From an uncultured Planctomycetia bacterium (lineage in GTDB: Bacteria > Planctomycetota > GCA-002687715 > CAYQRN01), in the NCBI GenBank assembly GCA_964419995.1, contig CAYQRN010000001.1:1-57358 (forward strand): DNA of 57,358 nt, written 5' to 3'. A program made the translations under genes and the position numbers. The number at the start of each line of letters is the position of its first letter. Positions within the stretch are counted from its first letter, which is position 1. Positions 13,140 through 56,285 of the stretch are shown piece after piece. The notes under the pieces are model-generated. The model was not told the DNA's origin. It ran no database searches and saw only the letters and a list, made by a program, of their open reading frames with translations.

Positions 13140-13208
13140 GGGACGCGGGTCGCCTCCCCTGCCGTTCGACCCGGAACCCCGCCTCCGGCGGGCGCAAGGA
13201 GTCAGGAA

Positions 13209-37527: not shown

Positions 37528-39051
37528 TCAGGCGAGGGGGCCGATCGTCTCCTCGACGGCGGCGGCGAGGCTCCCGTCGTCGATGATGCGGCGGACGGCG
37601 CGGAGGTCCGGGGCGAGCCAGCGGTCGGCCGTGAGCCGCGGCGCGGCCGCCGACACGACCTCGAGGGCGCGCTCGACGGCGGGGCTCGAACGCAGGGGAC
37701 GGTGGAACTGCAGGGCCGTGGAGGCCGCGAAGAGCTCGATGGCGAGGATGGATGCAACGTTGTCGGCGATGGCCGCGAGGTGCCGTGCCGCGATGGGAGC
37801 CATGCTGACGTGGTCCTCGCGGCCGGCACTCGTCGGGATCGAGTCCACCGAGGCGGGATGAGCGAGCGACTTGTTCTCGGACGCGAGGGCCGCCGCCACG
37901 ACCTGGGGGATCATGAAGCCCGAGTTCATGCCGCTGTCCTCCACGAGGAACGGCGGCAGCCCGGAGAGGTCGGGATTGACGAGGGATTCGATGCGGCGTT
38001 CGGCGATCGCGCCGAGCTCCGACACCGCGGCGGCGGCGTAGTCGAGCGGGAGGGCCAGGGGCTCGCCGTGGAAGTTCCCCGCCGAGACGACGTCACCGTC
38101 GTCGGAGAAGACGAGCGGGTTGTCCGTCGCGGAGTTCATCTCCCGCTCGAGCACGGCGCGGAGATGCGCGAGTGCGTCGCGCACGGCGCCGTGGACCTGG
38201 GGGACGCAGCGGAGGGAGTAGGCGTCCTGCACCCTTCCGCACCCGGCGTGGGACGCGAGGATGGCGCTCCCGGCGATGAGAGCGCGCAGGTTCGCCGCGA
38301 CGACGGCGTGGCCGGGGTGGGGGCGCACGAGGGCGACGCGGGGGTCGAAGGGCGTCGCGGAGCCCCGGAGCGCATCGAGGGTCATGGCCGCGGCGATGTC
38401 GGCGACGCGTGCGAGGTCGAGGGCGCGGAGCAGCGCGTCGATCCCGATGGCCTGGGACACCTGCGTACCGTTGATGAGGGAGAGCCCTTCCTTCGCGGCC
38501 AGGACGAAGGGCGGGAGGTCCTTCTGTCTCAGTGCCGTGGCCGCCGGGATGGTGACGCCCTGGAGCCGCGCCTCGCCCTCGCCGATGAGGACGAGGGCCA
38601 TGTGGGCGAGGGGCGCGAGATCGCCGCTGGCGCCGACGGAGCCCTTCTCCGGCACGACGGGCAGGATTCCCGCATTGAGGAGCCCGAGGAGGCGCTCGAT
38701 GAGCTCGAGGCGGACGCCGGAGTTGCCGCGGGCGAGGGCGTTGACCCGGAGGATCTGGGCCAGTCGCACGACGCCGTCCGGAAGCGGCGGGCCGACGCCG
38801 CAGGCGTGGGAGAGGAGGAGGTTGCGCTGGAGGGTCCGCAGTCCGTCCTCGGGAATCCGGGTCCCGGCGAGGCGGCCGAACCCGGTGTTGATGCCGTAGA
38901 TCGGCCGGTCGTGGGGGATGGCGTCGAGAACCTCCCGTGCGCGCCGCACGGCGGCGACGGCCGAGGGTGCGAGCGCGAAGACCATGGGGTCGCCCCGGAC
39001 CACGGGCCGCACGGTTTCGACGTCGAGCGATTCCCCGTCGAGCACGAGCAT
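37528..39051 (-). CDS. hutH: Histidine ammonia-lyase
   Basis: I trimmed listed ORF 37528..39957 to the ATG at 39051 (MLVLDGESL). Motifs are YGINTGFG, the MIO-forming GSVGASGDLAPLAH, and NFHGEP. Confidence 0.95.
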   Translation of the reverse strand: MLVLDGESLDVETVRPVVRGDPMVFALAPSAVAAVRRAREVLDAIPHDRPIYGINTGFGRLAGTRIPEDGLRTLQRNLLLSHACGVGPPLPDGVVRLAQILRVNALARGNSGVRLELIERLLGLLNAGILPVVPEKGSVGASGDLAPLAHMALVLIGEGEARLQGVTIPAATALRQKDLPPFVLAAKEGLSLINGTQVSQAIGIDALLRALDLARVADIAAAMTLDALRGSATPFDPRVALVRPHPGHAVVAANLRALIAGSAILASHAGCGRVQDAYSLRCVPQVHGAVRDALAHLRAVLEREMNSATDNPLVFSDDGDVVSAGNFHGEPLALPLDYAAAAVSELGAIAERRIESLVNPDLSGLPPFLVEDSGMNSGFMIPQVVAAALASENKSLAHPASVDSIPTSAGREDHVSMAPIAARHLAAIADNVASILAIELFAASTALQFHRPLRSSPAVERALEVVSAAAPRLTADRWLAPDLRAVRRIIDDGSLAAAVEETIGPLA

Positions 39052-39105
39052 GGCGCGAACTCTACCGCGCCCCCGGAGGGGAGCCCAGAACGTGCGACCG
39101 CCTTG

Positions 39106-40569
39106 ATGGAGGCTGCGTCCCGGTCCACGATGCGTCCGGCAAAGGAGACTCCCACGGCCCGGTCGAGCCTCTCGGATCCGCTGGCGCTGGGCGCGGCCCA
39201 CGCCTTCCGCCTCGCGACCGCCGTCGCGGCCGGCGGGATCATCGCCCGCCACCTCGGCGCGGCGGAGTTCGGCGTTTTCGCCTGGCACGCCACGGCCCTG
39301 TCGCTCGGGGCCTTCGTGCTCGATCCCGGCGGCGGCGTGGTCCTCACGCGCCGCCTCGCCGCGGCGGAGGGATCGTCCGGACCCCTTCTCGCGGCCCTGT
39401 TCCGCCTCCGCTTCGCCGCCGGCGTCGTGCTCCTCATCGTGCTCGTCCTCGTCACGGCTCTTCCCGGTTCCGGCACGGGCCGCCTCGACGCGGCGATTCT
39501 CACCGGTCTCGCCTTCCCATGCCTGTTCGGCGCCACGGCAGCTCCGGTGCTCCTCGCCGGCGGCCGAGCCCGCGTCCTCGCGACCTCGGGTGCCGTCATC
39601 CACGCGGCCTTCCTGGCCGCGGTCGGACTCGTTGCGATCCTCGGCCTGCCCGGCGGCGCCTGCTTCCTCGCCCTCGGACTCCGGGAGTCGTCGCGCGGGA
39701 TCTGGCTTCTCGCCGCCGCCCGCCGGGACCTCCCGCGGGGCGTCCGCCCTGCCTTCGCCGAGGCCATCGCCTTCCTCCGCTCGGGGCGAAGCGCGGCCCT
39801 CGCCGCCGTGGTTTCGGCCCTCGCCCTGCACCTCGACGTGTTCACGGCCGGCGCCCTGCTGCCGGCGCCGGACTTCGGCGCCTACGCGCTGCCGGTGCGG
39901 CTCGCCGTTCCGCTCATGCTCGCCTCCGGCGTTCTCCTCGCTCCCTTCCTGCCGCACTGGTCGCGATCGTTCCCGGCGGCGCGCGGGCGGAGCGCGGCGG
40001 CGGTCTCCTTTGCCCTCGGGATGGCGGGGCTCGCCGTGGCGGGGCCCCTCATCATCCTGTCCGCGGACGTCCTCGAGTCCGTCTACGGCGCCCGCGTCCT
40101 CTCGGAGGCCGAGGGCGCGGTTCCGGCGCTCGGCCTCCTTTCGGCCGCCACGGCGGCCGTCTGGTACGGGAGCGTGTGGACGACGGCGCTGGCGGCGGCG
40201 GGCCGCTTCGCGCGGCTCCTGACCATCTCGCTCGCCGGCCTCGCCGCGACCGCTGGACTCTGCCTTCTGCTCATCCCGCGGTGGGGTCCTGCCGGCGCGG
40301 CGGCTGCGGTGCTCGGCCGCGAGATCCTCGTCGCGGCCCTCGCTCGGGGCGCGTTCCGGGGAGTCGGCGCCGGCGTGGCGCGGCGGGAGGCTTTCCGCGC
40401 TGCCCTGACGGTGCTGCCCGCGGTCCTCGTCGCAGCGGTCCTGCGGGGGCGAGGCGCCGTGGCCGTCATCGCCGCCGTCGCCGCGGGAGTCGGGGCCCTC
40501 CTCCTGCTCCTTCGGTCGGCCGCCGCCGGATCGGCGCTGGCCTCGCTCGAGGAGGGGCGCGAGCCATGA
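39106..40569 (+). CDS. Polysaccharide/oligosaccharide flippase (MOP/Wzx-like polytopic membrane protein)
   Basis: This is the C-terminal part of listed ORF 37702..40569, starting at the ATG at 39106. It has about 12-14 hydrophobic segments. The N-terminus is of the kind ...FRLATAVAAGGIIARHLGAAEFGVFA seen in Wzx/MurJ-type exporters. It is followed by a GT4 gene with an ATGA overlap. Confidence 0.6.
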   Translation: MEAASRSTMRPAKETPTARSSLSDPLALGAAHAFRLATAVAAGGIIARHLGAAEFGVFAWHATALSLGAFVLDPGGGVVLTRRLAAAEGSSGPLLAALFRLRFAAGVVLLIVLVLVTALPGSGTGRLDAAILTGLAFPCLFGATAAPVLLAGGRARVLATSGAVIHAAFLAAVGLVAILGLPGGACFLALGLRESSRGIWLLAAARRDLPRGVRPAFAEAIAFLRSGRSAALAAVVSALALHLDVFTAGALLPAPDFGAYALPVRLAVPLMLASGVLLAPFLPHWSRSFPAARGRSAAAVSFALGMAGLAVAGPLIILSADVLESVYGARVLSEAEGAVPALGLLSAATAAVWYGSVWTTALAAAGRFARLLTISLAGLAATAGLCLLLIPRWGPAGAAAAVLGREILVAALARGAFRGVGAGVARREAFRAALTVLPAVLVAAVLRGRGAVAVIAAVAAGVGALLLLLRSAAAGSALASLEEGREP

Positions 40570-41708
40570 GGATCGGCCTCGACTACCGCGCAGCCCTGAT
40601 CGGGGGCGCGGGCATCGCCCGCTACGTCCGGAATCTCGCCGGCGCGCTCCGCCGCGCGGCTCCCCATCACGACCTCGTGCTCGTGGCGCCGTTCTTCGGC
40701 CGGTTCCGGCGCCGCATCGCCCTGGCCGAGTCCTCTCTGCCTCCCGGTGCCATCCGGGCGTTCCGGCGGATCCCGGGGCGTCTCGTGCGTCTGCTCGACG
40801 CCGGGGGTCTCCTCCGCGCGGAGACCGTGGCCGGCCCCCTCGACGTCTGGCACCACACCGACTACATCCGGCATCCCCGCTCGCGGGGCCCTGCCGTGGC
40901 GACGCTCTTCGACGTGAGTTACCTCGTCGATCCTGCGTTCCACGGCCGCAGGAATGCCCTCCGACTCGCCGCCACGAGCCGCTGGCTCATCGAGCGGGCC
41001 CGGCGCATCATTGCCATCTCCGCGTTCGCACGGGAGGGGATCGCGCGTCACCACGGGGTCCCGGAGGAGCGCATCGACGTGACGCCGCTCGGTGTGGACC
41101 CCGTTTTCCTGGCTTCGCGGAGCGACGAGGATCGCGATGCTCTCCGGCGCCGCCTCGGCCTCAGGGGCGACTACGTGCTCCACGTGGGGACGCTCGAACC
41201 CCGGAAGAACATCCCCCGCCTGCTCCGGGCCTTCCGCGCCGCCGACCGCGGGGCGCCGGGTCACGTCCTCGTCCTTGCGGGAGCCGCGGGGTGGCTCATG
41301 GAGGATCTGCCCTCCCTCATCCGCGACCTGGATCTCCGGGGCCGCGTCCTCGAGACCGGCCGCCTCTCCGACCCGGACCTCGTCACGCTCATGAGCGGGG
41401 CGCGTTGTCTTGCGTACCCCTCGCTCCATGAGGGCTTCGGGCTTCCGCCGCTCGAGGGCATGGCGCAGGGCGTCCCGGTCCTCACGTCGCGGGGATCGGC
41501 CATGGAGGAGACCGCGGGAGATGCCGCCCTCCTCGTGGACGCGACCTGCGAGGAGGACATCGCCCGGGGGCTCCTCGCGCTCCTCAGGGACGATACGCTG
41601 CGCGCAGAGCTCGTCGCGAGGGGCCGCGGCAGGGCGGCGACGTTCACCTGGGACCGCACGGCGGAACTGACGCTCCGGAGCTACACCCGCGCGCTGGCGG
41701 GAACGTGA
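40566..41708 (+). CDS. Glycosyltransferase family 4 (GT-B, retaining)
   Basis: Motifs are GGAGIARYVRNL, YVLHVGTLEPRKN, PSLHEGFGLPPLEGMAQGVPVL and EETAGDAALLVD (the EX7E region). Confidence 0.85.
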   Translation: MRIGLDYRAALIGGAGIARYVRNLAGALRRAAPHHDLVLVAPFFGRFRRRIALAESSLPPGAIRAFRRIPGRLVRLLDAGGLLRAETVAGPLDVWHHTDYIRHPRSRGPAVATLFDVSYLVDPAFHGRRNALRLAATSRWLIERARRIIAISAFAREGIARHHGVPEERIDVTPLGVDPVFLASRSDEDRDALRRRLGLRGDYVLHVGTLEPRKNIPRLLRAFRAADRGAPGHVLVLAGAAGWLMEDLPSLIRDLDLRGRVLETGRLSDPDLVTLMSGARCLAYPSLHEGFGLPPLEGMAQGVPVLTSRGSAMEETAGDAALLVDATCEEDIARGLLALLRDDTLRAELVARGRGRAATFTWDRTAELTLRSYTRALAGT

Positions 41709-41759: not shown

Positions 41760-42389
41760 TCAGGTGGACCGGACGAGGGTCCACACGAGGGCGAAGAGGC
41801 CGGCGGCCGCCCCCAGGAGGACGAGGACAGCGACGATCCGGAATCCGAGGGAGCGCTGCGAGAGATCCTGTCCGAGGAGGGACGATCGTTTCGCGGCCCT
41901 GGCGTGAGGACTCCTCTGGATCAGCCGGTCGCCGGCGACGCGAATCCCGCCCGCGCCCTCTGCGGCCGGTCGTCCGCCGCGATTCGCCTGTCGCGGCGGA
42001 GCCGGCGGCAGCTGAGACGGCGCCGGCGCGGGGATGTCGTCGTCCGGGCCGTCGAGCGTGATCTCCTCGAGGTCGGGCGGCGGCGTGTCAGGCGGCGCCG
42101 AGGACAGCGTGGCCTCGAAGCGAAGCCGGGCCTCCCCGATCCGGAGTTCGTCGCCGCTGCGGAGCGTGGCCCGCGTCACCCGTTCGCCGTTCACGAAGGT
42201 CCCCGTGGCGCTGTTCATGTCGGCCACGTGGACGCTGTCTCCGGCCTGCCAGACGCGTGCGTGCTCCGGGGAGACGCCACCCGCCGCGATGGGCACGGGC
42301 GATCGCGGTCCGGAACCGAGGATGACCGGCCTTGCCACGGGAATCCCGCGTCCGGCGTTCGTACCCGTGAGGAGAACGAGCCTCGCCAT
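41760..42389 (-). CDS. FHA-like domain protein with a C-terminal TM anchor
   Basis: I trimmed listed ORF 41760..42614 to the ATG at 42389 (MARLVLLTG). The FHA-like region has ILGSGP, SPEHARV and SATGTFVNGERV. A Pro-rich linker follows. The C-terminal TM segment is IVAVLVLLGAAAGLFALVW. Confidence 0.7.
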   Translation of the reverse strand: MARLVLLTGTNAGRGIPVARPVILGSGPRSPVPIAAGGVSPEHARVWQAGDSVHVADMNSATGTFVNGERVTRATLRSGDELRIGEARLRFEATLSSAPPDTPPPDLEEITLDGPDDDIPAPAPSQLPPAPPRQANRGGRPAAEGAGGIRVAGDRLIQRSPHARAAKRSSLLGQDLSQRSLGFRIVAVLVLLGAAAGLFALVWTLVRST

Positions 42390-42494
42390 GCGCGGCAAGT
42401 ATGGCCTCGCACGGCTCTCGCGCAAGAGCCGCCGGCCCTTGCGCCAGGGCGGCGTCCCGCGCACGATCGGTCGGCCCCACTCCGGTGGACGGGC

Positions 42495-42935
42495 ATGCAC
42501 TGGAACCAGAGTACAAGGATCGCTCTCCTCGCCGCGCTGGACATGGCGCGGCGGGAGGACGGCTTCGTCACGGTCGCCGACATCGCGCGGCGCCATGGCG
42601 TTTCCGCGAGCCACCTCGCCAAGGTCCTTCGCGCCCTTGCGCGGGCGGGCCTCGCTGCGGCGTCGCGGGGCGCCGCGGGGGGCTACCGCCTCGCACGGCC
42701 CGCCGGTCAGATCACGCTCTTCGACATCGTGACTCTCTTCGAGGATCGCGACCGCGGGGGCTTCCGGTCCCGGAGCGACGCCTCCTTGACGGATCCGGCG
42801 ACCCTCGCCCTCGCGGGCGTCTTCGCCGAGATCGAGGACACGGCCTTCACGACCCTCCGGACGGTGCAGCTTTCGACGCTCATCCGTCCCGCAGCGGCCG
42901 GCCGCCGGCTTCGGGCGTCCGGAGGCCGGCGCTGA
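42495..42935 (+). CDS. Rrf2-family transcriptional regulator
   Basis: Motifs are STRIALLAALDMARR, the HTH VTVADIARRHGVSASHLAKVLRALARAGL, and SRGAAGGYRLARP. I see no C-terminal Cys cluster, so it is probably not an Fe-S-sensing type. Confidence 0.8.
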   Translation: MHWNQSTRIALLAALDMARREDGFVTVADIARRHGVSASHLAKVLRALARAGLAAASRGAAGGYRLARPAGQITLFDIVTLFEDRDRGGFRSRSDASLTDPATLALAGVFAEIEDTAFTTLRTVQLSTLIRPAAAGRRLRASGGRR

Positions 42936-43828
42936 TGGGGCCGCCGGAGTCCGGCGAACCCGCCATCGAGGTGTCGGACCTCTGCCGGACGCTGGGTGGC
43001 CGGGGCAGGGGAGGGCGGGTCGCGGCCGTGGACGGCGTCTCCTTCCGCGTGGAGCGCGGCAGGGTTCTCGGCCTCTTCGGCCGGAACGGCTCGGGCAAGA
43101 CGACGATCCTGCGCCTCCTCTCCGGACTCCTGCTCCCGACCCGGGGCCGCGTCCTCCTCCTCGGTCGTCCTCCGCGTCATCCCGATGTTCGCGGCCGCAT
43201 CGCGTGGGTTCCGGAGGAGGGGGAGCTCCCCTCCTTCCTCACGGCGGAGGAGACGCTCCGTTTCCACGTCGGCCTCATGGGGGAGAGGCCCGCGCGGGAG
43301 AGGAGCCGCGTGCAGGCGGCGCTCCGCCGCTTCGGTCTCGCGGAGACGGGCCGGAAGAGGGTGGCCTCGTTCAGCCGGGGCATGCGCCGCCGGCTCGCCC
43401 TCGCGGTCGTCCTGATCCGCCGCCCCGCCGTCGTTCTCCTTGACGAACCTACGTCGGGGCTCGATCCGGAGGGACGGGCGGCCTTCCGCGATGCCGCGGC
43501 CGACCTCACGCGGGAGGGCGCCACGGTCGTGCTGAGCTCCCACGACCCCGAGGACCGGGCAGGGCTTGCCGATGCCCTCATCATCCTCGACGCGGGCCGC
43601 GTGGCCTTCCAGGGGACGCCCGAGGACCTCGCGATGTCGCTCCGAGCGGTGGATCTCACGATCACCGGCGTGGGGCCCGGGGACTGGGACGCCATCGAGG
43701 CGGCCGTCCGGGCGCGGGGCGGGGCCGTGACGGATCGCCGGGCTGCGGAGTCCGCCGTGTCGGCCCGCTGGTTCGCCCGGCCCTCCGGCGGAGATGCCGC
43801 CGGCGGCCCCGGAGGCGGCGCGCCGTGA
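42935..43828 (+). CDS. ABC transporter ATP-binding protein (ABC-2/DrrA-like) with a roughly 70-aa C-terminal extension
   Basis: Its ATG shares one base with the Rrf2 stop (TGATG). Motifs are Walker A GRNGSGKTT, signature FSRGMRRRL, Walker B VVLLDEPTSGLD and H-loop LSSHD. Confidence 0.9.
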   Translation: MGPPESGEPAIEVSDLCRTLGGRGRGGRVAAVDGVSFRVERGRVLGLFGRNGSGKTTILRLLSGLLLPTRGRVLLLGRPPRHPDVRGRIAWVPEEGELPSFLTAEETLRFHVGLMGERPARERSRVQAALRRFGLAETGRKRVASFSRGMRRRLALAVVLIRRPAVVLLDEPTSGLDPEGRAAFRDAAADLTREGATVVLSSHDPEDRAGLADALIILDAGRVAFQGTPEDLAMSLRAVDLTITGVGPGDWDAIEAAVRARGGAVTDRRAAESAVSARWFARPSGGDAAGGPGGGAP

Positions 43829-45021
43829 GGAGGCGGGTCGCGTCCGCCGCGTGCCTCCTCGCGGACCACGTCGCGCGGCGCCTCACCCGGGCCGGCGTCC
43901 CGCTCGCACTCGTCGGAGGGACGGGGGCCGTTCTCGCCCTCCATCCGTTCTTCCGAAGCAGCGGGCCCGAGGCGGATCGCACGCTGTTCCTCGACCTCGC
44001 CGGCGGCGCCGCCGTCGTCCTCACGCTCGGCGCGGCGCTGCTCCTTTCCGCGCGGCTCACGGCGCCGCGGGACGGCCTCATCGCCGCCTCCCATCTCGCG
44101 CTCTGGCCCGGACCCGCCGCGACCTGGCTCGGCGGCGGGATCGCGCTCTCGCTCGTCCTCGTGGCTTCGGCAGCCGCGGTCGGGCTCCTGGCCCTCGGCC
44201 AGTATGCCGTGCGGTTCGGCGCGGCGGATGCGGGGGACGCCGCCCGGGCGGTCCGAGTCGAGGTGCCGTTGCTTCGCCCGTCCCCGGGTCGCGTCCTCCT
44301 CACCGGCGATGCCCCCTCCGCGACCTTCCGTTTCGCCACGACGCCGGAGGATCTCGCCGACGGCGTGCTGCGCCTCGATCTCCGGGCGGGACTCCTCTGG
44401 ACGCCGGGCACGACGCTCCCGCGGCGCGTGCCGGTGGAGGTCGTGCTACTCGATGGTGCCGGGCGGGAGGCCGCGCGCGCCCGCCCGTCTCTCTCCGGAG
44501 AGCGGATCCGGTCCGTGCTCCTCGTGCCTTCCGGCACGATGGGGCCGCCGCCCCATGCCGTCCGGGTGACCCGCGTCCATCCGGGGTTCGATCTTCGCCT
44601 CGGGCCGGGGGACGTGCGGCTCCACGGGAAACGCGGAGCCTTCATCGGCGGCGCCCTCCGGGGACACCTCGCTCTCGGGCTCCGGGCGGCCACCGTGGCT
44701 GCCTTGGGCCTCCTGGCGTCGGCGTTCCTGTCCGAGTCTCTGGCCTTCCTCCTCGCCCTTCTCTGCGTCATCCTCGCCGACAGCCGCGAACTGCTCCTCG
44801 AATCCGGCTGGTTCGGAGGCAGCACGGCTCCGGGAGTGGCGCTGAGAGCGATCCTGGCGCTGCTGCCGCCCTCTCCGGGGCGCTCTCCGTTCGCCGATGT
44901 CGGCAGCGGCAGGACCCCTCCGAACACCGAGCTTTGGGCCGAGGCCCTCCGCTGGCTGGCAACGCTGTGCGCGGGAGGACTGGTCGTCTACCTGGGCCGG
45001 CGGCGGAGCGACGTCCCGTGA
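43825..45021 (+). CDS. Polytopic membrane protein with a large beta-rich extracytoplasmic insert (candidate permease partner)
   Basis: The start forms a GTGA overlap with the ATPase stop. It has about 4 N-terminal and about 4 C-terminal hydrophobic segments flanking a roughly 150-aa soluble region (VRVEVPLLRPSPGRVLLTG...VRVTRVHPGFDLRLGPGDVRL). I recognise no family motif. Confidence 0.55.
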   Translation: MRRRVASAACLLADHVARRLTRAGVPLALVGGTGAVLALHPFFRSSGPEADRTLFLDLAGGAAVVLTLGAALLLSARLTAPRDGLIAASHLALWPGPAATWLGGGIALSLVLVASAAAVGLLALGQYAVRFGAADAGDAARAVRVEVPLLRPSPGRVLLTGDAPSATFRFATTPEDLADGVLRLDLRAGLLWTPGTTLPRRVPVEVVLLDGAGREAARARPSLSGERIRSVLLVPSGTMGPPPHAVRVTRVHPGFDLRLGPGDVRLHGKRGAFIGGALRGHLALGLRAATVAALGLLASAFLSESLAFLLALLCVILADSRELLLESGWFGGSTAPGVALRAILALLPPSPGRSPFADVGSGRTPPNTELWAEALRWLATLCAGGLVVYLGRRRSDVP

Positions 45022-46235
45022 CATCCGTGCCGGTCCGCCTCGCCGTCATGATCGCGGCCTTCGCCCTCGCCGTGGTCCTCCGCCTCCCGTCCACGCGGAC
45101 GGGAGCGCCAGGCATCGTGACCCCCGCCGGGGCGGACCTTCCCGTCTTCGCCGGGACGGTCCTCGCCGGAGCCCTCCGTCCCCTGGCCCTCGACACGCTC
45201 TGGCTCCGTGCCGACCGGGCCTATCGCGAGGGCCGGCCCTTCGCGCTCCTCGCGGATCTCGCGCTCCTCGCGGCCCTCGATCCGGGGAACGATCGGGCGT
45301 GGAGCTATCAGGCGGCTTTCCTGCTCCACGACGTCGCGGGACTCGAAGACAACCCCGATGAACGCTTCCGGTGGGTCCGGGAGGGCATCCGTTTCCTCGA
45401 GGCCGGCATCGCGCGGAATCCGCGCAGCGTCGATCTGCGCCTCGGCGCGGCCCGCGCTCTCATCCACGTCGCCGGCGAAGATCCGCGGTGCTATCCCCAC
45501 GCGATCCGGGCCTGGCCGGAAGGACCTTTCGCAAGGGCCTTCGCCCATGCCGCCGGCGCCGAGCGGCTGGCTCCCGGAGATCCGCGGCCGCTTCGCGCCG
45601 CGGCCCTGGCTGCCTTCTTCCGGATGCTCGAGGCCGCGGCGGCGGGAGATCGGGCGGAGGCCGCCCGGGCCGCCTCCGCTCGTCTCCGCCGCCTCGAGGC
45701 CCTCGGAGCCGGAGAACTCGACCCTCCGGCGCCGCGACTCTTCGAGGCGGCCACGCGATGGGACGGCGTCTTCCGCGCGCTCGCCGAGCCGGCTGCGGAA
45801 CCCGCCGAGGCTCTCCGCGGGGCGATGCGCGGTATCGAGGCGGAGATCCGCGCGACCCCGCCCGAGGGAGGCGTGGAAATCTCCGATGGGAATGCGGGGC
45901 TCGTCGCGGCCTGTCTCAGACTGGTCCTCGTCGAGATCGTCCAGGGGATGACGGCCGGCCGTTCCGAGGGTGCCGCGGCGCTCCTCGCCGAGGTCCGGCG
46001 CCTGACCGGCCTCTTTGCAGCGTCCCGTCCCCGACATGCCCTCGCTCACGACCCGGCCCTCGTTGCGGACCTCGAAGCTCTGGCGGCCTGCGAGGAGCGG
46101 TACGGTCCCGCCGGGGCCCGCGGCGGGACGGAGACGGGCTCCCGCCCCGATGTCGACGGGATCCTCCGGCGCCTCTCCGCCCATGGGAGGAAAGAGCCTG
46201 CCGTGGCCGCGCTGCTTGCGTCGCGGCGCCGGTGA
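45018..46235 (+). CDS. N-terminally anchored all-alpha hypothetical protein
   Basis: The start forms a GTGA overlap with the preceding stop. It has a single N-terminal TM segment (VRLAVMIAAFALAVVLRL). The rest is Ala/Leu/Arg-rich and helical, possibly TPR-like. I recognise no family motif. Confidence 0.5.
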   Translation: MTSVPVRLAVMIAAFALAVVLRLPSTRTGAPGIVTPAGADLPVFAGTVLAGALRPLALDTLWLRADRAYREGRPFALLADLALLAALDPGNDRAWSYQAAFLLHDVAGLEDNPDERFRWVREGIRFLEAGIARNPRSVDLRLGAARALIHVAGEDPRCYPHAIRAWPEGPFARAFAHAAGAERLAPGDPRPLRAAALAAFFRMLEAAAAGDRAEAARAASARLRRLEALGAGELDPPAPRLFEAATRWDGVFRALAEPAAEPAEALRGAMRGIEAEIRATPPEGGVEISDGNAGLVAACLRLVLVEIVQGMTAGRSEGAAALLAEVRRLTGLFAASRPRHALAHDPALVADLEALAACEERYGPAGARGGTETGSRPDVDGILRRLSAHGRKEPAVAALLASRRR

Positions 46236-46273
46236 TCGGACCTTGACGGCGACCCGTTCCGGGGAAATCCGCC

Positions 46274-48103
46274 ATGTCGACCCGTCTCGTTGCGCTCGGC
46301 CTCGCCGCGGAGATCGCGGCCCTGCTCGTCGTGCTCGCAGCCGGTCGGGCCAGGCGCGGGGCCGCGGCATCCCGCGCGGGCGGGGGTGCGTTTACGCAGG
46401 GTATCGGGCTCCTTCTCCGCCTGCATGGCCGTGGTCTCGTCGCGGTCACGCTCCTCCTCGCCGGCTTCGCGGCCGCTGCCTCGCCCTCGGCCCGTCCGGG
46501 CGCCGCGCTGGCGGTCCTCGCCGGATCAGCGGCGGCGCTGCTCCTCGGAATCGCGGCGGCGGGACGCCTCCGGCCGGGGGCAGCCCCCGAGGATCGCGGA
46601 TCGACGCGTCCCGCCGCGGTCCTCGTCCCCGCTGCGGTTCTTCCGGCAGGCCTCCTCTTCCTCGGCACCGCCGGGTTCGCGGCGCAGGATCCCCGCGCCG
46701 TGTGGCTGCCGGCGTCCTTCCTGCTCGGCATGGCGGGATCGGTGGCCGTGCTCCGGTTCGGAGCGGTCGTGGCCGGCGAAGGACTCGCCCGCGCAGCCCG
46801 GGACCTGCCCGGGATGGAGGCCGGCCTCCGTCCCGATGACAGCGGGATTCCCGCCTTCCTCCGGAACGAAGGACCGCTGATCGGCGGTGTGTTTCCCGTG
46901 GTGGAGCGGGCGCTCCTGCTCCTCGCGGCGCTCTTCGCGACCCGCTGCTTCGTGATCCTCGCGCCCCCCGATCGCGTCGAATCGCTTCTCGGACCGGCGG
47001 GCGCGGCGGGGATCGGACCGCGCCTCGCGGAATTCGCTTTCCTCGCCGCGGCCTTCACCGCTGCCGGATACGCCCTGCTCGGGATCGTCGCCGGCCGAAG
47101 CCGCGGGGCGCCGGCGTCTTCGGCGGCGATCGGGATCGCGGCTCTCGCCTCCTTCCTGACCGGCGCGCTTCTCGGCGTGGGCATCGCCTGCGCCGCGTGT
47201 GTCGTCCTCGGCGTGCTGGTTGCCGAACTGGCGGACGTCGCCGCCCGGCGCACCATCGAGGCCCGCTGGCGCGATACCGGACCGGAGGGGGATCCCGGCG
47301 GCGATCCCGGGTTCCGTCCGGCCTCCGCGCGGGCCGCCGTGACTCTCGAGGCCGTCATCCTGATGGCGGGTGTGGCCCTCGCGCTGCGCTTCGCGGGGCC
47401 CCTCGGGTCGCTCCTTCTCTCTTCGGGCCTCGCGCTCCGCGCCGTTCTCCGAACTCCGGAGCCGGTGGCTCCGTCGCCACCGTCCGCCGCCTGCGATCCT
47501 CCCGCCGTCGCTCTCTCCGCCGGATGGATCGGCGCGATTCTCCTCGTCACGTTCTGCGACGCGATGACGATGGCGGCCGTCCGATCGGGGAAGGCGGCCG
47601 AGCTGCTAACGACCCTCGGATCAGGTCACGAAACGGCCACGACATTCCTTCCGTTCTTCCCGGTGGTCGAGGCGCTGGCGGGCATCCTCGCCGGAGGCCT
47701 CTGCGGGACGCTTGCCGGCGGGTCGCCCGCGCGGGCAATCGGACGTGTCGCCGCCGTGGTCATCGATGACATCCGCCGGCAGCTTCGGGTGGGGCCCGCC
47801 GGGGGGAATGCCGGGCGCGGGGTCCCCGTCCGCGTCGTGGGGCGGGCGGCAGCCCTCCAGTCCGTGCCCCGCGTCGCGGCGATCGCGTTTCTTCCCCTCG
47901 CGACCGGAGCGATTCTCGGCCCCGTGATCGCCGCGGCATGGGTGGCGGGCTTCTGCCTTGGCGCCGCCGCGCGCGGCGAGACCGCCACGATTCTGCGTCT
48001 CCGGGGCGCCTCGGGGGGCGAGGCGGGCGTGGGCCCCGGCGCCATGGCCGTGCTTGCCGGCGCCTCGGCCGTCGTGGGGGCTTCGATTCAAACCCTTATT
48101 TGA
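46274..48103 (+). CDS. Polytopic membrane protein resembling a membrane-integral pyrophosphatase (M-PPase) but lacking the catalytic Asp motifs
   Basis: It is 609 aa with about 14 hydrophobic segments. By eye, [30 protein letters not shown] aligns with M-PPase [41 protein letters not shown]...[24 protein letters not shown] aligns with VVEEVRRQF...ALKEMIIPGLLAVLAPIAVGFLLG. The C-terminal [18 protein letters not shown] aligns with [24 protein letters not shown]. Confidence 0.5.
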   Translation: [609 protein letters not shown]

Positions 48104-48245: not shown

Positions 48246-48665
48246 ATGCCAAGACAGACTGCGGGGGAAGTCGTAACGGAACCGACAGGCAACCTCACGG
48301 CCACGGCGCTGGCCCATCTCGCGGCGGACATCATTCTCGACAAGAAGGGCGAAGATCTCGCGGTCATCGATGTGTCCGAAGTCACGGACATCGCCGACTA
48401 CGTGGTGCTCGCCACGGGGATGAACGTCCGCCAGACTCGCGCCACGGCCATCGAGATCGACCGGGTCATGAAGCAGAAGGGCCGGCGCAAGCTCGGCATG
48501 CACGGCGCCGACCAGGGGCGCTGGGTGCTCGTCGACTACGGCGACGTCGTCGTCCATCTGCTGCTGGATGACGCGCGACGGTTCTATGATCTCGATGGAC
48601 TCTGGGGCGACGGCCGCGTGGTCCGGAAGGTCGAATCGGGCAGGAAGGCTGCCAGTACGGCCTGA
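48246..48665 (+). CDS. rsfS: Ribosomal silencing factor RsfS (iojap family)
   Basis: Motifs are DKKGEDLAVIDVSEVTDIADYVVLATG, WVLVDYGDVVVHLL and RRFYDLDGLW. Confidence 0.9.
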   Translation: MPRQTAGEVVTEPTGNLTATALAHLAADIILDKKGEDLAVIDVSEVTDIADYVVLATGMNVRQTRATAIEIDRVMKQKGRRKLGMHGADQGRWVLVDYGDVVVHLLLDDARRFYDLDGLWGDGRVVRKVESGRKAASTA

Positions 48666-48691: not shown

Positions 48692-49159
48692 TCAGGGGCT
48701 CTCGGCCGCGGGCGCGCCGGAGTCCGGCGCCATCACCGGGGCGGGGGGTTGCCCGGCGGAACGGACTTCGTCCACGAGGCGGATATCGCCCTCGCGGACA
48801 TCGAGGAGGGTCCTGACGCCGCGATCCAGAAGATCCGACGCCCCGACCATTTCCGGCTCGAAGTGGGCCCTGTAGCGCCAGATCGTTCCGGAGTCCGTGA
48901 CGAAGCCGAGCCGTCGGCGTTCAGGGTCGAGGACGATGTGGTGCTTCCGATCGTTGGCCGGATCCGGGTCGTGATCCGCGAAGGCCCAGGTCTGCACCCA
49001 GCCGACGGTCCGGTCGCCCTGGACGACGCGAAGGAGACCGAGAAGGCGCGATTCGGGAACGTCGAATCCGATGGTGCTCTCGTCACGAACGGTCTCATGG
49101 GAGCAGGAGACGGCCGCCGCGAGGAGTCCGAGGGTGGCGCAGACTGCGATCCTGTTCAT
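48692..49159 (-). CDS. Small lipoprotein, hypothetical
   Basis: I trimmed listed ORF 48692..49258 to the ATG at 49159. The signal plus lipobox is MNRIAVCATLGLLAAAVSC. I recognise no family motif. Confidence 0.55.
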   Translation of the reverse strand: MNRIAVCATLGLLAAAVSCSHETVRDESTIGFDVPESRLLGLLRVVQGDRTVGWVQTWAFADHDPDPANDRKHHIVLDPERRRLGFVTDSGTIWRYRAHFEPEMVGASDLLDRGVRTLLDVREGDIRLVDEVRSAGQPPAPVMAPDSGAPAAESP

Positions 49160-49456
49160 GTTCCCTTCCCGGGGCTTCGGGGCGCCGGAGGATACCAGAC
49201 GTCCCCCCGCCGGGCAAACGTCCCGGCCCTGTGCCGGACGCAGGACGAAATCGGGCACCCGTTACCGCGGCGGGACACCATGGGGCACTCCGCCCCGCCG
49301 CCCGGTTCTTCGGGAATTCACGGAAGAAACGGCCGATGTTGCTCGTTAGATGGGCAGAGACCGGTGGTTTCGGTGATTCCCGGACGGGGCCCCGTAACTT
49401 TTGGCTCGACCGTTGCATCAAGACTCGGGGAAACCCCCGAACAGGAGGAAACGACG

Positions 49457-50092
49457 ATGGTGCACCTCTCGAAGACAATGGCCCTCGACCGTCTCGGAAC
49501 CACCGCGAAGTCGGGAAACGAGGAGGACCTCCGGCGGGAGAAGGAAGAGGAAGTCGCCCTCATCCGCGCCGCCAAGGAGGGGGATGTTGACAGCTACGGC
49601 AAGATCGTCCGGCATTACGAGAAGAAAGTCTTCTGGATCGCCTACCACTTCGTCAACAATTTCGACGATGCGCGCGACATCGCCCAGGAGGCTTTCCTCC
49701 GGGTGCATCGGGCTCTGGCCCGTTTCGATCTCAAGTACAACTTCTACACATGGCTCTACCGGATCGTGGTGAACCTCGCCATCGATCATCTGAGGAAGCG
49801 GAGCAAGCAGAACGCCGTTTCCATCGAGGATTTCCCCGCGGATCCCCCCGTCCGGCAGGACCCCGATGCGCGCCTTGACGCGGCCGAGACCCGCCGTTTG
49901 ATCCACTGCTGCCTCGACGGGCTGCCCGCCAAGTACAGGACCGTGCTTCTCCTCCGCGACGTCCACGAGATGTCGTGCGACGAGATTTCCCAGATCATCA
50001 AGTGCACGAACGCCACGACCCGCTGGCGCCTTCACAAGGCCCGGGAGCTCTTCAAGGCGCGCTGGGAGCGCCTCACGACCGCCCAGCGCTGA
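49457..50092 (+). CDS. ECF-type RNA polymerase sigma-70 family factor
   Basis: AGGAGGA lies 7 nt upstream of the ATG at 49457. Region 2 has YEKKVFWIAYHFVNNFDDARDIAQEAFLRVHRAL and YTWLYRIVVNLAIDHLRKR. Region 4 has LPAKYRTVLLLRDVHEMSCDEISQIIKCTNATTRWRLHKAR. Confidence 0.9.
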   Translation: MVHLSKTMALDRLGTTAKSGNEEDLRREKEEEVALIRAAKEGDVDSYGKIVRHYEKKVFWIAYHFVNNFDDARDIAQEAFLRVHRALARFDLKYNFYTWLYRIVVNLAIDHLRKRSKQNAVSIEDFPADPPVRQDPDARLDAAETRRLIHCCLDGLPAKYRTVLLLRDVHEMSCDEISQIIKCTNATTRWRLHKARELFKARWERLTTAQR

Positions 50093-50106
50093 GGCTCCGC
50101 GGTCCG

Positions 50107-53100
50107 CTACCGCGCCTCGGCGAACTCCACGGACTCGATCTCGACGAGTCCGGGAGTCGCGCCGAAGTCGAGCACGACCCGCTCCCCGGGGGTGCAGTCG
50201 GAGAGCGGGATCGAGATCATGTCCGTCCCGGCCATGGCCGACCCCGCCCGGCGCGGAACCCCCTCCCGGGACAGGATCGATGCCCGGACCTCCCGCGCCT
50301 CCGCGTTTCGATCGAAGGCTCCCCGGATCCTGACGACGGCGCTGCCTTCGAGGTCGGGAGGGAGGTCGAGAGTCACGACCGCGGGGCCGAGTACCGGCAG
50401 GAGAGCGCAGATTCCGCCTGCCGTCGCGGAGGCCGTCGCCAGAGCCCCGGATACGCCACCCGCGGCCAGGATCTCCCGGCCGCTCCGGCGGCGTCCCGGC
50501 GTGTGGGGGGGGTGGATCCAATCTGATCCGGCGCCGGCGGCGCAGAGACGCACCGCGTCATCGCCCGGCGGCAGGCGCAGTTCCGCCACGATCGTGAGGG
50601 TGCCACCGTCCGGGACGAGCACGAAAGGCAGGGGGATCGCGATGCTCGTCCGCCCGCCGCCTCCGGTCTCCCACGCCGCCTCGATGGAGTCCGGGGCGCG
50701 CCCGCCGCGCTCCGGCCGCATCGCGATCAGGAAGCGTGCCGTTCCGGCGACGGGCGGGCCCGCCGTGATCCGCTCCAGGACGACGCTCGAGCGGGGTCCG
50801 CCGGTCCGGGCGAGGGCGAGGAGCCGGGGGAACGGAAGATCCGCCAGAGTCTCCCGTTCACCGGCTCGCCCGGCGAGTAACTCCTCCGCAAGGCGCATGG
50901 CTGCGTCGAGGATCTGGGGGTCGACGCGGCGTTCGAGGCTGGCCCGGATCCGACCTGCGACGGGCGGCGTCGCTCCGGGGAGGAGCAGGATCAGGAGCTC
51001 GTCGGCCTCGCCACCGCCGATGCTCGCCGCCGCATCCGCCAGGTCCGCCCGCGCGGATTCCGCGATGAGACCTTCCCTCACGATCCTCGCGCAGATCCCG
51101 TCGAGGCCGTCGCCGGGCGAAAGGGCGAGGAGCCGCCGGGCCATGGCGACGAAGCGGCCGCTTCGGATGTCCGAGCGCGCGAGCTCGAACCGCAGCGCCG
51201 CGACGGCGGCTCCTCTCTGCCGGGGTGCCAGGGCTCGGGCGGCGATGGTCCGAATCGTCCCGTCGGGCGAGAGGAGGGAACCGGGGTCGTCGCCGGGCGG
51301 GTCACCGGCCACGAGGCGGCGGAGCCACTCCACGGAGGGACTTCGCTCGCGGCGCGACGCCGCCAGGGCTGCTGCCCCCTCCGGGTCGATGGTCGAAGCG
51401 AGGCGCAACGCCATGAACCTCTCGCCGTCGGTGGCGGAGAGGGCCTCCTCGAGGTCGGCGAGGGAGCCGGGAGCCGCCCAGATCTCGAGCAGGTAGAGCG
51501 CGGCGATGCGGGCGCCCGCGTCGAGGCCCCGGAGCCTGGCGCGGAGCCGGGGCGCGAGGGCGGCATGCCCCGGCGTCGCGAGGAAGGCGAGCGCCCGGGC
51601 CTTCGCCTCCGGGTCGGAGCCGAGAAGATCGTGAAGGCGCCGGTGGAGCTCGCGATCGGCCGAGGCGGCGAGGGCGGCCGATCCGGCGCGGAGCCGCGCG
51701 TCCAGCGCCGCGAGGCCGCCGCGGAGCCTGGCCACCTCCTCGGGATGGCTTGCCGCCACGTCCCTCCTTTCGCCGGGGTCCGCGGCGAGGTCGTGGAGGA
51801 CGAAGGCGGCGTCCGCCTGGTAGTGAAAGAGCTTGAACCGGCCATCGACGATGACCCGGCAGTCGTCCGAGAGGGCGTCGCGGAGCCCGCGGCTCCGCGG
51901 CGACTCGGCGAAGGCGGCGCGGGGGAAGGCGATCTCCGGGTCGAGGAGGACGGGCACGAGGGAGACGCCGTGCATCCAGGCCGGGATCGGGAGACCCGCG
52001 AGCTCGAGGAGGGTCGGCGCGATGTCCACGTTGCCCGTGGGTCGGCGGATCCGGGCGGGAGGGAGACCCGGGACGCGAAGGATGAGCGGGACCCGGATCT
52101 GCTCGTCGAAGAAGCTCGTTCCGTGGTACCAGGCGCCGTGCTCGCCGAAGGCCTCGCCGTGATCCGAATGGATGGCGAGGACGGAATCGTCGAGCCGGCC
52201 GAGGCTCTGAAGACCATCGAGGAGTCCGCCGAGGGCGCGATCGGTCTCCCGGACCTCGGCGTCGTAGAGGGCTTCCGCGGAGGCTCCGGGAGGAGCCTCC
52301 GCGGGCGTATAGGGCGCGTGGGGATCGAAGAGATGGAGCCAGAGGAACACCCTCTGCCGGCCCGCCGCCCGAACGGCTCCGAGGGCCCGGTCCACGACGC
52401 TCGCCGCCGAGAGCCCCTTCTCCTCGCGGATCACCGTCCCGAAGCCCTCGAAGAAGCTCTCGAAACGGTGATCGGCGATCTCGCGGCCGGACATCCCGGT
52501 GACGGCGAGGGTGGTGAACCCCGCCTCGACGAGGATCGCCGCGAGGGGTCGCACGGGGCCTTCCGGTGCGCGACCCGTGAGATCCTCGTGGACCCGCGGC
52601 GTCTCCGACGGGTATCGGGCGGTGAGCATCGATGCCATGGAGAAGGCGGTCTCGGAGGCCTGGCTCCGATGCGCGAGGAAGGCGGTGGAGGCCGCGGCGA
52701 GCTCACGAAGTCGAGGTGCGACCTCAGCCCGGTCGGGGTCCTCGATGCGGTCGGCCCGGAGCGCATCGACGGTGACGAGGATCACCGAACGTCCGGCCGC
52801 CGTTCCGAGAATCTCATCGCGGCGGGCCATGCCGGCCGCGGAGTGCGGGGGCGGGTCGAAGAGGCCCGGCGTGGCCGCCAGGATCTCCGGAGGGTCGGCC
52901 CCTCCGGGCCAGGTTGGCAGGATCGCGCCGAAAATCCGCGTGGCGAAGAAGGCTGCGCTGCCGTTGATCCTCATGTCGGCGGCCGCCGGCGGCGGAGGCG
53001 GGGAGAGGATGCAGTGAGCGACCGCGGCGGCGGCGGCGGCGGCCCCGGCGATCCGGAGGATCCGGAACCGGGGGAGGAGCGGAGGCAGGGCCAGGGCGAA

Positions 53101-53664
53101 GAGGCCGAGGGCCGCCAGGGCTGCCATGGCGTCGAGGGCCGGGTAGCGGAGGCGAAAACCCCGGACGTCGAGGACGAGGGCGGCGAAGGCCGCCGCGAGG
53201 AGGGCGAAAGCCGCCGGACGATGGCGCAGAGCGCCGCCGCGGACGAGGCGGAAACCCGTGGCCAGAAGCACGGCCATGGCTCCCGCGGCGGCGAGGCGGA
53301 GGGCCATGCGCCGCACGGAGGGACCGGCGCCCGGCCCCTCCGTGAGAAGGAGGATCGCGATGCCCGCGGCGGGCAGGGCGAGAGCGGCGTCGGCCGCGGC
53401 GATGCGCCACGGGCTCCGCGGCGGACCCATCCGGCGGAGGGCCTCGAGCGCGCCTGCGAGGGCGGCGAGCAGGGTGGATGCGCCGGCCGTCGCGGCGGCG
53501 TAGTCGACCATGAGGCCGATCGTCGTGCGACCGTCGGGCGGAGGCGCGCCGGTCAGCCCGCGCCGGAGGGCCGTGACGACCGCCAGGACGAGGCCGCCGG
53601 CCACCACGGCTGCTCCCGTCGCGAGACCCGCGCGCAGCGGAGATATGCGAAGATCACTCCCCAC
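50107..53664 (-). CDS. Giant membrane protein: about 8 TM segments, an alkaline-phosphatase-superfamily (sulfatase/LtaS/EptA-like) domain, HEAT-like repeats and a C-terminal beta-rich region
   Basis: The start is set to the in-frame GTG at 53664, because upstream of it the frame lies inside the preceding gene. An ATG further in (MVDYAAA) is also possible. Sulfatase-fold motifs are VILVTVDALRADR, ETAFSMASMLTARYP, LWLHLFDPHAPY, HSDHGEAFGEHG and NVDIAPTLLELAG. The C-terminal half is Ala/Leu/Arg helical repeats. Confidence 0.7.
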   Translation of the reverse strand: MGSDLRISPLRAGLATGAAVVAGGLVLAVVTALRRGLTGAPPPDGRTTIGLMVDYAAATAGASTLLAALAGALEALRRMGPPRSPWRIAAADAALALPAAGIAILLLTEGPGAGPSVRRMALRLAAAGAMAVLLATGFRLVRGGALRHRPAAFALLAAAFAALVLDVRGFRLRYPALDAMAALAALGLFALALPPLLPRFRILRIAGAAAAAAAVAHCILSPPPPPAAADMRINGSAAFFATRIFGAILPTWPGGADPPEILAATPGLFDPPPHSAAGMARRDEILGTAAGRSVILVTVDALRADRIEDPDRAEVAPRLRELAAASTAFLAHRSQASETAFSMASMLTARYPSETPRVHEDLTGRAPEGPVRPLAAILVEAGFTTLAVTGMSGREIADHRFESFFEGFGTVIREEKGLSAASVVDRALGAVRAAGRQRVFLWLHLFDPHAPYTPAEAPPGASAEALYDAEVRETDRALGGLLDGLQSLGRLDDSVLAIHSDHGEAFGEHGAWYHGTSFFDEQIRVPLILRVPGLPPARIRRPTGNVDIAPTLLELAGLPIPAWMHGVSLVPVLLDPEIAFPRAAFAESPRSRGLRDALSDDCRVIVDGRFKLFHYQADAAFVLHDLAADPGERRDVAASHPEEVARLRGGLAALDARLRAGSAALAASADRELHRRLHDLLGSDPEAKARALAFLATPGHAALAPRLRARLRGLDAGARIAALYLLEIWAAPGSLADLEEALSATDGERFMALRLASTIDPEGAAALAASRRERSPSVEWLRRLVAGDPPGDDPGSLLSPDGTIRTIAARALAPRQRGAAVAALRFELARSDIRSGRFVAMARRLLALSPGDGLDGICARIVREGLIAESARADLADAAASIGGGEADELLILLLPGATPPVAGRIRASLERRVDPQILDAAMRLAEELLAGRAGERETLADLPFPRLLALARTGGPRSSVVLERITAGPPVAGTARFLIAMRPERGGRAPDSIEAAWETGGGGRTSIAIPLPFVLVPDGGTLTIVAELRLPPGDDAVRLCAAGAGSDWIHPPHTPGRRRSGREILAAGGVSGALATASATAGGICALLPVLGPAVVTLDLPPDLEGSAVVRIRGAFDRNAEAREVRASILSREGVPRRAGSAMAGTDMISIPLSDCTPGERVVLDFGATPGLVEIESVEFAEAR

Positions 53665-56260: not shown

Positions 56261-56285
56261 GGTCGAGTGTTACGATGGGCGCCGC

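Follow-up and report, generated by a model that had tools for sequence, protein, structure and literature searches.

Do five tightly packed genes in an extremely GC-rich planctomycete genome, three of whose products match no family model, encode a single envelope machine? The genes, g1 to g5, lie on the plus strand at positions 42495-48103 of a 57,358-nt stretch of DNA from an uncultured Planctomycetia bacterium (contig CAYQRN010000001.1), the whole of which was analyzed and is called the window. The original prediction, made by reading the sequence, described the products in order as an Rrf2 regulator, an ATP-binding cassette (ABC) ATPase of the ABC-2 type, a polytopic protein with a beta-rich insert, an anchored all-alpha protein and a polytopic protein resembling a pyrophosphatase (PPase), and proposed that they form one stoichiometric unit. 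Comparison with related loci indicates that the operon is probably one lineage's form of a gene block conserved in Planctomycetota, in which a three-gene ABC exporter core (g2, g3 and g4) is followed by the dead remnant of a membrane-bound pyrophosphatase (M-PPase), g5.

Operon structure

Translation of the coordinates confirms five same-strand open reading frames (ORFs) that read cleanly for 146, 297, 398, 405 and 609 amino acids, and an independent gene caller found the identical five genes on a 99.98%-identical Logan contig (L001). The junctions are as originally described: TGATG between g1 and g2, GTGA between g2 and g3, GTGA between g3 and g4, and a gap of 38 nt between g4 and g5. The features of the operon are listed below (AF2, AlphaFold2; TM, transmembrane helix).

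42495..42935, plus strand: g1, Rrf2-family winged-helix regulator, 146 amino acids (PF02082, TIGR00738)
42935..43828, plus strand: g2, DrrA/ABC-2-type ABC ATPase, 297 amino acids (PF00005, motifs intact)
43825..45021, plus strand: g3, putative divergent ABC-2-type permease, 398 amino acids (transitive profile links)
44242..44634, plus strand: predicted beta-sandwich insert of g3, about residues 140-270 (AF2 model)
45018..46235, plus strand: g4, N-terminally anchored alpha-helical protein, 405 amino acids (homologues follow the permease in relatives)
45105..45512, plus strand: conserved N-terminal domain of g4, about residues 30-165, without a family model
46274..48103, plus strand: g5, polytopic protein, 609 amino acids, approximately 15-16 helices (M-PPase position and residual patches)
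46802..46891, plus strand: patch 1 of g5, residues 177-206 (BLASTP and hhalign against the M-PPase TM5-TM6 loop)
47672..47929, plus strand: patch 2 of g5, residues 467-552 (hhalign and hmmsearch against M-PPases)

The length of an ORF is no proof of a gene at this locus, and lists of ORFs are unreliable, because a GC content of 72-75% yields abundant spurious long ORFs. Long ORFs are present in all six frames of the window, and between 37702 and 48160 many overlapping spurious ORFs of 400-950 amino acids cover the operon on both strands. The five genes are nevertheless real, because g5 shows a pattern of selection relative to a 95%-identical relative (L005) and because homologues of g2, g3 and g4 with the same order and overlaps are found elsewhere, as described below; the GC content by codon position (approximately 0.80, 0.59 and 0.85) agrees with the called frames. 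Sequences resembling Shine-Dalgarno sites (GGAGG or GGAG) precede the starts of g2, g3 and g4 by 9-15 nt, within the preceding genes. The start of g4 may be GTG 45018 or GTG 45027, both of which are at most 10 nt from the stop codon of g3 and keep the conserved basic residue before the membrane anchor. No terminator was found between g4 and g5, and no sigma-70-like promoter was detected in the spacer between g1 and the divergent FHA-domain gene upstream. The five genes are a real, tight, co-directional operon.

A conserved ABC module in Planctomycetota

When HMMER was run over the full set of 1.84e9 representative proteins, with g3 and g5 concatenated as the query, it found two weak relatives of g3 (P0007 and P0008) and, for g5, only its own 93%-identical variant. 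In word-indexed searches, g3 and g5 matched nothing but themselves or the 93% variant, words rich in Ala, Gly and Leu having swamped the index; a search with a three-sequence alignment of g3 added only P0007; a scan of a genome collection with a two-sequence alignment of g4 produced no confirmed locus; and a metagenome scan with g2 returned generic ABC ATPases of at most 38% identity and one 40-residue fragment of 45% identity, with no new module. The genes that surround P0007 (L006, 65% GC) encode an FHA-domain protein (upstream, on the same strand as the ABC gene), an ABC ATPase, P0007, a 429-amino-acid protein, an M-PPase (PF03030) and the ribosome silencing factor RsfS. By BLASTP, the window has counterparts of the FHA-domain protein (31% identity, E 7e-21), the ABC ATPase (g2, 38%, E 9e-50), P0007 (g3, 30%, E 1e-12), the 429-amino-acid protein (g4, 34% over residues 30-140, E 6e-14) and RsfS (55-57%, E 1e-14 to 1e-20).

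With the L006 pyrophosphatase as the query, 80 M-PPase loci were retrieved from species-representative genomes; the best six matches, together with L017, are metagenome-assembled genomes labeled 'Planctomycetota bacterium'. Five loci (L007, L008, L009, L010 and L012) have in common a divergent FHA-domain gene followed by genes for the ABC ATPase, a g3-like protein, a g4-like protein, M-PPase, RsfS and a homologue of the 155-amino-acid protein encoded after rsfS in the window, with the FHA-domain and 155-amino-acid genes visible only where the contig reaches far enough. In this clade the ABC gene overlaps the g3-like gene, and the g3-like gene the g4-like gene, by 4 nt or 1 nt as in the window, and a gap of 44-76 nt precedes the M-PPase gene; homologues of g2, g3 and g4 with this order and with 1-nt or 4-nt overlaps are present in genomes of 51-71% GC. 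Nine Brocadia-type loci of 41-45% GC have the same gene order, with short gaps in place of the overlaps: ABC ATPase, a 426-amino-acid permease, a 271-amino-acid g4-like protein, M-PPase and RsfS. By hidden Markov models (HMMs) of the families, 16 of the 80 loci have a g4-like gene directly upstream of the M-PPase and 14 have a g3-like gene there; these loci are all from Planctomycetota, and neither gene was identified in any of approximately 50 M-PPase loci from other phyla.

The association is not obligatory in either direction. Around P0008 (L087, a metagenome contig), genes for an ABC ATPase, P0008 and a 617-amino-acid protein with the g4 domain are followed by unrelated genes, with no adjacent M-PPase; and in the Planctomycetota loci L013-L015, L019 and L024, which have ample upstream flank, the M-PPase gene occurs without the module, being directly followed by rsfS in L013-L015. 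Altogether rsfS follows the M-PPase gene in L006-L015, L017, L021 and the Brocadia loci. Because L087 has the module without an M-PPase, the ABC ATPase, g3 and g4 constitute a self-standing three-gene unit, and because, in addition, M-PPase and rsfS occur without the module in L013-L015, the M-PPase position is that of a syntenic neighbor and not of a demonstrated component. The expectation that the five genes would co-occur thus holds for g2, g3 and g4, which recur as a unit in at least 16 other Planctomycetota loci, and fails for g1, since Rrf2 is absent from every related locus.

Some details of these loci are of separate interest. In L006 the genes for M-PPase (12530-14675 of the ENA contig) and RsfS (18189-18597) are each broken by a single frameshift, and these are more likely to be assembly errors than real pseudogenes. 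In the Brocadia-type loci (L042-L074, e.g. 9743-12172 of L051), the longest ORF for M-PPase encodes approximately 809 amino acids and an N-terminus approximately 100 residues longer than in other Planctomycetota; the extra length may be genuine or may stem from a wrongly placed start. Three consecutive Band_7/SPFH genes lie beside the ABC module of L087 (67-6487), and a second ABC2_membrane_2 permease paralogue of 535 amino acids is encoded there on the opposite strand.

Components of the ABC module

The ATPase g2 matches PF00005 with 111 bits (cut-off 25), and its sequence contains a Walker A motif (GRNGSGKTT), a signature (FSRGMRRR), a Walker B motif (VVLLDEP) and an H-loop (SSHD). Its identity to the ABC proteins encoded at the equivalent place in L006-L012 and the Brocadia loci is 35-43%. 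Among NCBIfam models it matches TIGR01188 (drrA) best, with 180 bits, below the cut-off of 312, over profile positions 4-217 of 302; against the LptB model g2 scores 104 bits (cut-off 240), so that it is nearer to DrrA. The C-terminal extension of approximately 70 residues that had been attributed to g2 is the usual C-terminal domain of ABC-2 ATPases, because the protein, at 297 residues, is of normal length compared to the 302 positions of TIGR01188.

The product of g3 has three TM, a beta-rich insert and three more TM, as had been read from the sequence. The family of the protein is suggested through its relatives: a profile of seven g3 sequences of the clade aligns at full length with the profile of the Brocadia permeases (hhalign, 365 columns, probability 94.6%, E 6.5e-8); the Brocadia permease of L051 passes the gathering threshold of PF12679, ABC2_membrane_2 (29.4 versus 27.2 bits, over TM1-3); and the HMM of the g3 family matches the PF12679-annotated paralogue in L087 (E 1e-12). 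By these links, g3 is a highly divergent ABC-2 permease into which a further domain is inserted. The earlier view that it is not a standard six-TM permease is correct in that the insert interrupts it, but the profile links place it with the ABC-2 family. An AF2 model built from two sequences contains the insert as strands between residues 157 and 268 (pLDDT, the per-residue confidence, 67-84), a domain of approximately 130 residues with three helices on either side. Foldseek matches the insert weakly to jelly-roll and carbohydrate-binding domains (BcsB, CBM16/22/4; E 7e-4 to 1e-2).

The product of g4 is alpha-helical behind an N-terminal anchor, in agreement with the original description, and has a conserved domain after the anchor with the motif G-(G/A)-F-(R/K)-x-(L/I)-x5-L-W-x2-A-x5-E. 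Homologues are encoded after the permease in L006-L012 (E 1e-10 to 1e-17) and in the Brocadia loci (E 1e-9 to 1e-13), and hhalign aligns the domain with those of Brocadia (E 3.6e-15) and of the L087 protein (E 7e-13). The domain is conserved over genomes of 41-75% GC (window 45105-45512, L051 8848-9663, L087 9632-11485) and is a candidate for a new domain family. Scores for tetratricopeptide repeats (TPR) are below threshold: 13 bits for TPR_17 in g4, 13-14 bits in the Brocadia orthologues, and 22.7 bits for TPR_14 (cut-off 23.5) in the L006 orthologue. From the positive-inside rule and the basic N-termini of g3 and of the Brocadia g4 proteins, the insert of g3 and the bulk of g4 are predicted to be periplasmic.

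The protein in the pyrophosphatase position

M-PPases are among the most conserved ion pumps. The gene g5 lies between g4 and rsfS on the same strand, which is the position of PF03030 M-PPases in 16 related loci, and its product resembles M-PPases in two patches, which bears out the original impression of a PPase-like polytopic protein. A custom HMM of 79 M-PPases matches g5 with 9.7 bits over approximately 95 residues, aligning HMM positions 503-601 with residues 466-560 and including the I-D/E-E-V-R-R-Q-F region; this score exceeds those of all 2000 block-shuffled controls, of which the highest was 7.7. By hhalign, this patch (patch 2) extends over 84 columns with 38% identity (E 5.4e-5, probability 67%) and corresponds to the MKAVGRAAxxMIxEVRRQF region of M-PPases and the helix that follows. 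Patch 1, in which BLASTP and hhalign align 30 residues of g5 with 32 residues of M-PPase, is colinear with the loop between TM5 and TM6 and is weak when taken alone (E 0.19-0.47), the DNVGDNVGD motif being replaced. The two patches are colinear and in the right order, at offsets of 14 and approximately 50 residues in proteins of 609 (g5) and approximately 700 residues (M-PPases), and the secondary structure of an AF2 model, which is the only level at which it can be read, places four helices before the TM5-like helix and loop patch.

The active site has been lost. Of the 45 polar residues that at least 97% of M-PPases have in common, nine are left in g5, and every catalytic cluster is substituted or deleted, including DxxxD on TM5, a further nine-residue cluster, DNAKK and GDTVGDPxKD. 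Because the Asp and Lys residues that bind Mg-PPi are missing, g5 is not a pyrophosphatase, and no signature of a soluble family-I PPase was found anywhere in the window.

Purifying selection, although weakened, still maintains g5 as a membrane protein. Compared to L005, g5 has no insertion or deletion in 1830 nt, with 26, 20 and 53 differences at the first, second and third codon positions, and the ratio of nonsynonymous to synonymous substitution rates (dN/dS) is 0.37 (p = 1e-6 against neutrality), compared to 0.16 for rsfS and 0.09 for the next gene. The window's g2, g3, g4 and rsfS are as far from members of the clade as those members are from each other, and M-PPases within the clade are 70-78% identical; because of this, the acceleration is confined to g5. 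The best reading of g5 is that it descends from the M-PPase encoded at this position in relatives and is degenerate and catalytically dead; the evidence of homology is moderate. A narrow search of the literature turned up no account of an M-PPase homologue that is catalytically dead.

Two further approaches to g5 were discarded. Global alignment was rejected as evidence that g5 is an M-PPase, because the controls score equally, and a frameshifted M-PPase pseudogene was rejected because the other frames of g5 contain no PPase signal.

Alternative explanations

Several observations weigh against the interpretation of the operon as an ABC exporter core with a dead M-PPase remnant. None of the three proteins that had been called unassignable is matched directly: g3 (at E of at most 1 in Pfam, and by single protein or family profile against PDB sequences) and g5 (at E of at most 1, including PF03030) have no match in Pfam, NCBIfam, PDB sequences or PADLOC, and for g4 no model in Pfam or NCBIfam covers the conserved N-terminal domain and there is no match in PDB sequences or PADLOC. 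In this respect the original statement stands; it no longer holds in that profile comparison links g3 to PF12679 and the two patches link g5 to M-PPases. The link from g3 to ABC-2 permeases is transitive, and beyond the insert its AF2 model is of low quality (mean pLDDT 53, with the rest of the chain below 60). The two-sequence AF2 model of g5 (pLDDT 37) is unusable for the fold, although a count of approximately 15-16 helices can be read from it; global identity between g5 and M-PPases is no better than with shuffled, reversed or circularly permuted controls; and homology of the two rests on approximately 115 residues plus synteny. The frequency with which the module is associated with M-PPase is biased, since the loci were mostly retrieved with an M-PPase query, and the two loci to which g3 itself led differ, one having an M-PPase and the other none. 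Finally, what is said below of the cargo class, the direction of transport and contacts between the proteins is prediction.

It is unlikely that all five products, or at least g2 to g5, form the one stoichiometric envelope machine that was originally proposed, with g5 or the M-PPase as an integral energy-coupling or structural subunit. The tight co-directional spacing without a terminator between g4 and g5 would agree with such a machine, as would the adjacency of module and M-PPase at gaps of 38-80 nt in two Planctomycetota groups that are deeply separated and range from 41 to 71% GC, and purifying selection on g5 despite the loss of catalysis would fit a structural role. The existence of the module without adjacent M-PPase in L087, of M-PPase without the module in L013-L015, L019 and L024, and of related loci that uniformly lack Rrf2 speaks against a fixed five-part unit, and conserved adjacency here need not signify a complex, because rsfS, which has no plausible functional tie, is equally conserved beside the M-PPase. 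It is similarly improbable that g5 is an unrelated polytopic protein that replaced the M-PPase non-orthologously. The failure of g5 to match PF03030, the lack of any M-PPase among its matches in the search of 1.84e9 proteins and a global identity no better than that of shuffled sequences speak for such a replacement; against it stand two colinear local matches in the right order at offsets of 14 and approximately 50 residues, an HMM score above all 2000 block shuffles, a helix count and placement that agree with M-PPases at the level of secondary structure, and the identical position and strand.

The possibility that g5 is a decaying, functionless pseudogene, whose frame remains open only through the rarity of stop codons at 75% GC, is very unlikely. 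In its favor, no catalytic motif survives, dN/dS is higher than in the neighboring genes by a factor of 2-4, and many spurious ORFs of more than 400 amino acids are present in the window; against this, dN/dS is significantly below 1, the frame has accumulated no indel relative to L005, changes at third positions are in excess, the hydrophobic helix pattern is preserved throughout, and no trace of M-PPase is found in other frames. Least credible is that g2 and g3 are a divergent lipopolysaccharide extractor of the LptB/LptFG type. The predicted layout of g3 is that of LptF/G (three TM, a periplasmic beta-jellyroll, three TM), and Foldseek matches the whole chain weakly to LptF and LptG structures (6mit, 5x5y; probability 0.35-0.63); the TM-scores of these matches are 0.16-0.22 on a model of low confidence, PF03739 (LptF_LptG) does not match g3 at E of at most 1 and the family profile of g3 does not match LptF/G among PDB chains, the Brocadia orthologue matches ABC2_membrane_2 instead, and the score of g2 on the LptB model falls well below the cut-off. 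The likeness of g3 to LptF/G is architectural only. Apart from these alternatives, identification of the operon as an anti-phage defence system was rejected: in PADLOC only g2 has matches, all of the generic P-loop kind, and g3, g4 and g5 have none.

Predicted function

With the three-gene ABC core and the M-PPase remnant as the preferred reading, analogy suggests that the module most likely works as an ATP-driven export or extraction system for a component of the envelope. The DrrA-type ATPase g2 would power the six-helix ABC-2-type permease g3, which, with its predicted periplasmic beta-sandwich between TM3 and TM4, would act with the membrane-anchored, TPR-like g4 as its partner. Judging from NosFY-NosD, GldAFG and LptB2FG, hydrolysis of ATP would most likely serve to export or extract a lipid or glycoconjugate of the envelope, and the cargo would then be passed to the periplasmic beta domain and g4. 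At its core the operon has a conserved, uncharacterized variant of ABC-2 systems, whose partner protein belongs to a family without a model, and not a new class of machine; nothing relevant to this operon was found in the literature.

The three-gene module, conserved in Planctomycetota from the anammox Brocadia to a lineage of 75% GC, is a candidate envelope export or extraction system and is of interest because the envelope biology of Planctomycetota is poorly understood. The retention of g5 may signify either a moonlighting structural role or a snapshot of the loss of an enzyme in a genome of very high GC content. It is unlikely that the ABC-2 module and M-PPase form a supercomplex, physical or functional, in Planctomycetota, with g5 as the pyrophosphatase converted in this lineage to a non-catalytic membrane subunit that the ABC machine still needs; if it existed, g5 would be the first M-PPase-derived pseudo-enzyme and the ABC module the first known partner system of M-PPase. 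For genomes of extreme GC content generally, this locus illustrates that synteny with less GC-rich relatives can resolve orphan-looking genes, even after searches of billions of sequences come back empty.

Regulation and flanking genes

Three features adjoin the operon.

41760..42389, minus strand: FHA-domain protein with a C-terminal TM anchor, 209 amino acids (Pfam FHA E 1e-13; Yop-YscD_cpl)
42414..42450, no strand: imperfect 18-nt inverted repeat, candidate operator (arms 42414-42431 and 42433-42450, 83% complementary)
48246..48665, plus strand: rsfS, ribosome silencing factor (PF02410, 102.6 bits), outside the module

The regulator g1 matches PF02082 with 95.5 bits (cut-off 30) and TIGR00738 with 93.5 bits (cut-off 73.3), which upholds its assignment to the Rrf2 family; its scores are far under the equivalog cut-offs of CymR, IscR and NsrR, and with a cysteine content of 0% it lacks the three cysteines that are Fe-S ligands in regulators of the IscR/NsrR/RirA type. 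No homologue of g1 is encoded at the related loci, where the spacer between the FHA-domain and ABC genes is approximately 30-270 nt, and the Rrf2 gene is an addition specific to the lineage of the window. The divergent spacer between the FHA-domain gene and g1 is 105 nt long in the window, and within it (42390-42494), where a search for an Rrf2 operator had been suggested, the inverted repeat at 42414-42450 is a candidate Rrf2 operator. The cysteine-free g1, having joined upstream in this lineage, would probably autoregulate the transcript.

Homologues of the FHA-domain protein (28-31% identity, E 1e-15 to 1e-18) are encoded divergently beside the ABC gene in L008 (6035-6547), L009 (527-1054), L010 (5611-6135) and L012 (5807-6391), with a weaker match in L021. 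Conservation of this divergent FHA-domain membrane protein suggests that the module may receive an input from Ser/Thr phosphorylation. Upstream of the FHA-domain gene, positions 38872-41708 of the window encode a 565-amino-acid polytopic protein with no Pfam match (flippase-like by composition) and a GT4 glycosyltransferase, an envelope-polysaccharide context that is absent from the related loci checked. After rsfS, positions 48692-56269 encode the 155-amino-acid protein, which is conserved only in the clade (L008, L010, L011, L012 and L017), an extracytoplasmic function (ECF) sigma factor, a 1185-amino-acid membrane protein with a sulfatase domain and an 871-amino-acid protein without a family.

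Comparison with known systems

The closest known systems are ABC-2 exporters with permeases of the PF12679/COG1277 type, such as NosFY and GldAF, in which a periplasmic or anchored accessory protein accompanies the permease (NosD with NosY, GldG with GldF). The module of the window is like them in its DrrA/ABC-2-type ATPase with a C-terminal domain, its predicted six-helix permease, the PF12679 match of the Brocadia orthologue and its anchored accessory protein; it differs in that g3 itself matches no ABC-2 model and has a beta-sandwich of approximately 130 residues between TM3 and TM4, and in that the partner g4 would represent a new TPR-like family and is neither NosD nor GldG. LptB2FG (5x5y, 6mit), in which LptF and LptG have the domain order three TM, beta-jellyroll, three TM, is similar to the arrangement predicted for g3, with the jellyroll in the periplasm, and in having a separate ATPase, whereas the module has no PF03739 match, an ATPase that is not LptB-like, one permease gene instead of an F/G pair and no LptC-like partner.

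Compared to M-PPases (PF03030; 4AV3, 4A01), g5 is alike in genomic position, in being polytopic, in its similar size and its approximately 15-16 helices, and in retaining the EAG(I/L)xxDD loop patch and the I(D/E)(D/E)(I/V)RRQ(L/F)R region, but it is approximately 100 residues shorter, has nine of the 45 invariant polar residues and none of the Asp/Lys clusters for Mg-PPi, and matches no Pfam model. CymR is a cluster-less Rrf2 regulator, and g1 is like it in belonging clearly to the Rrf2 family without a cysteine to hold an Fe-S cluster, although its score is far below the CymR equivalog cut-off. Mycobacterial Rv1747 is an ABC-2-like exporter regulated through FHA domains; there, as in the window, an FHA protein is genetically tied to an ABC-2-type exporter, but in Rv1747 these domains and the transporter form one fused protein, whereas in the window the FHA domain belongs to a separate anchored protein encoded by a conserved divergent neighbor.

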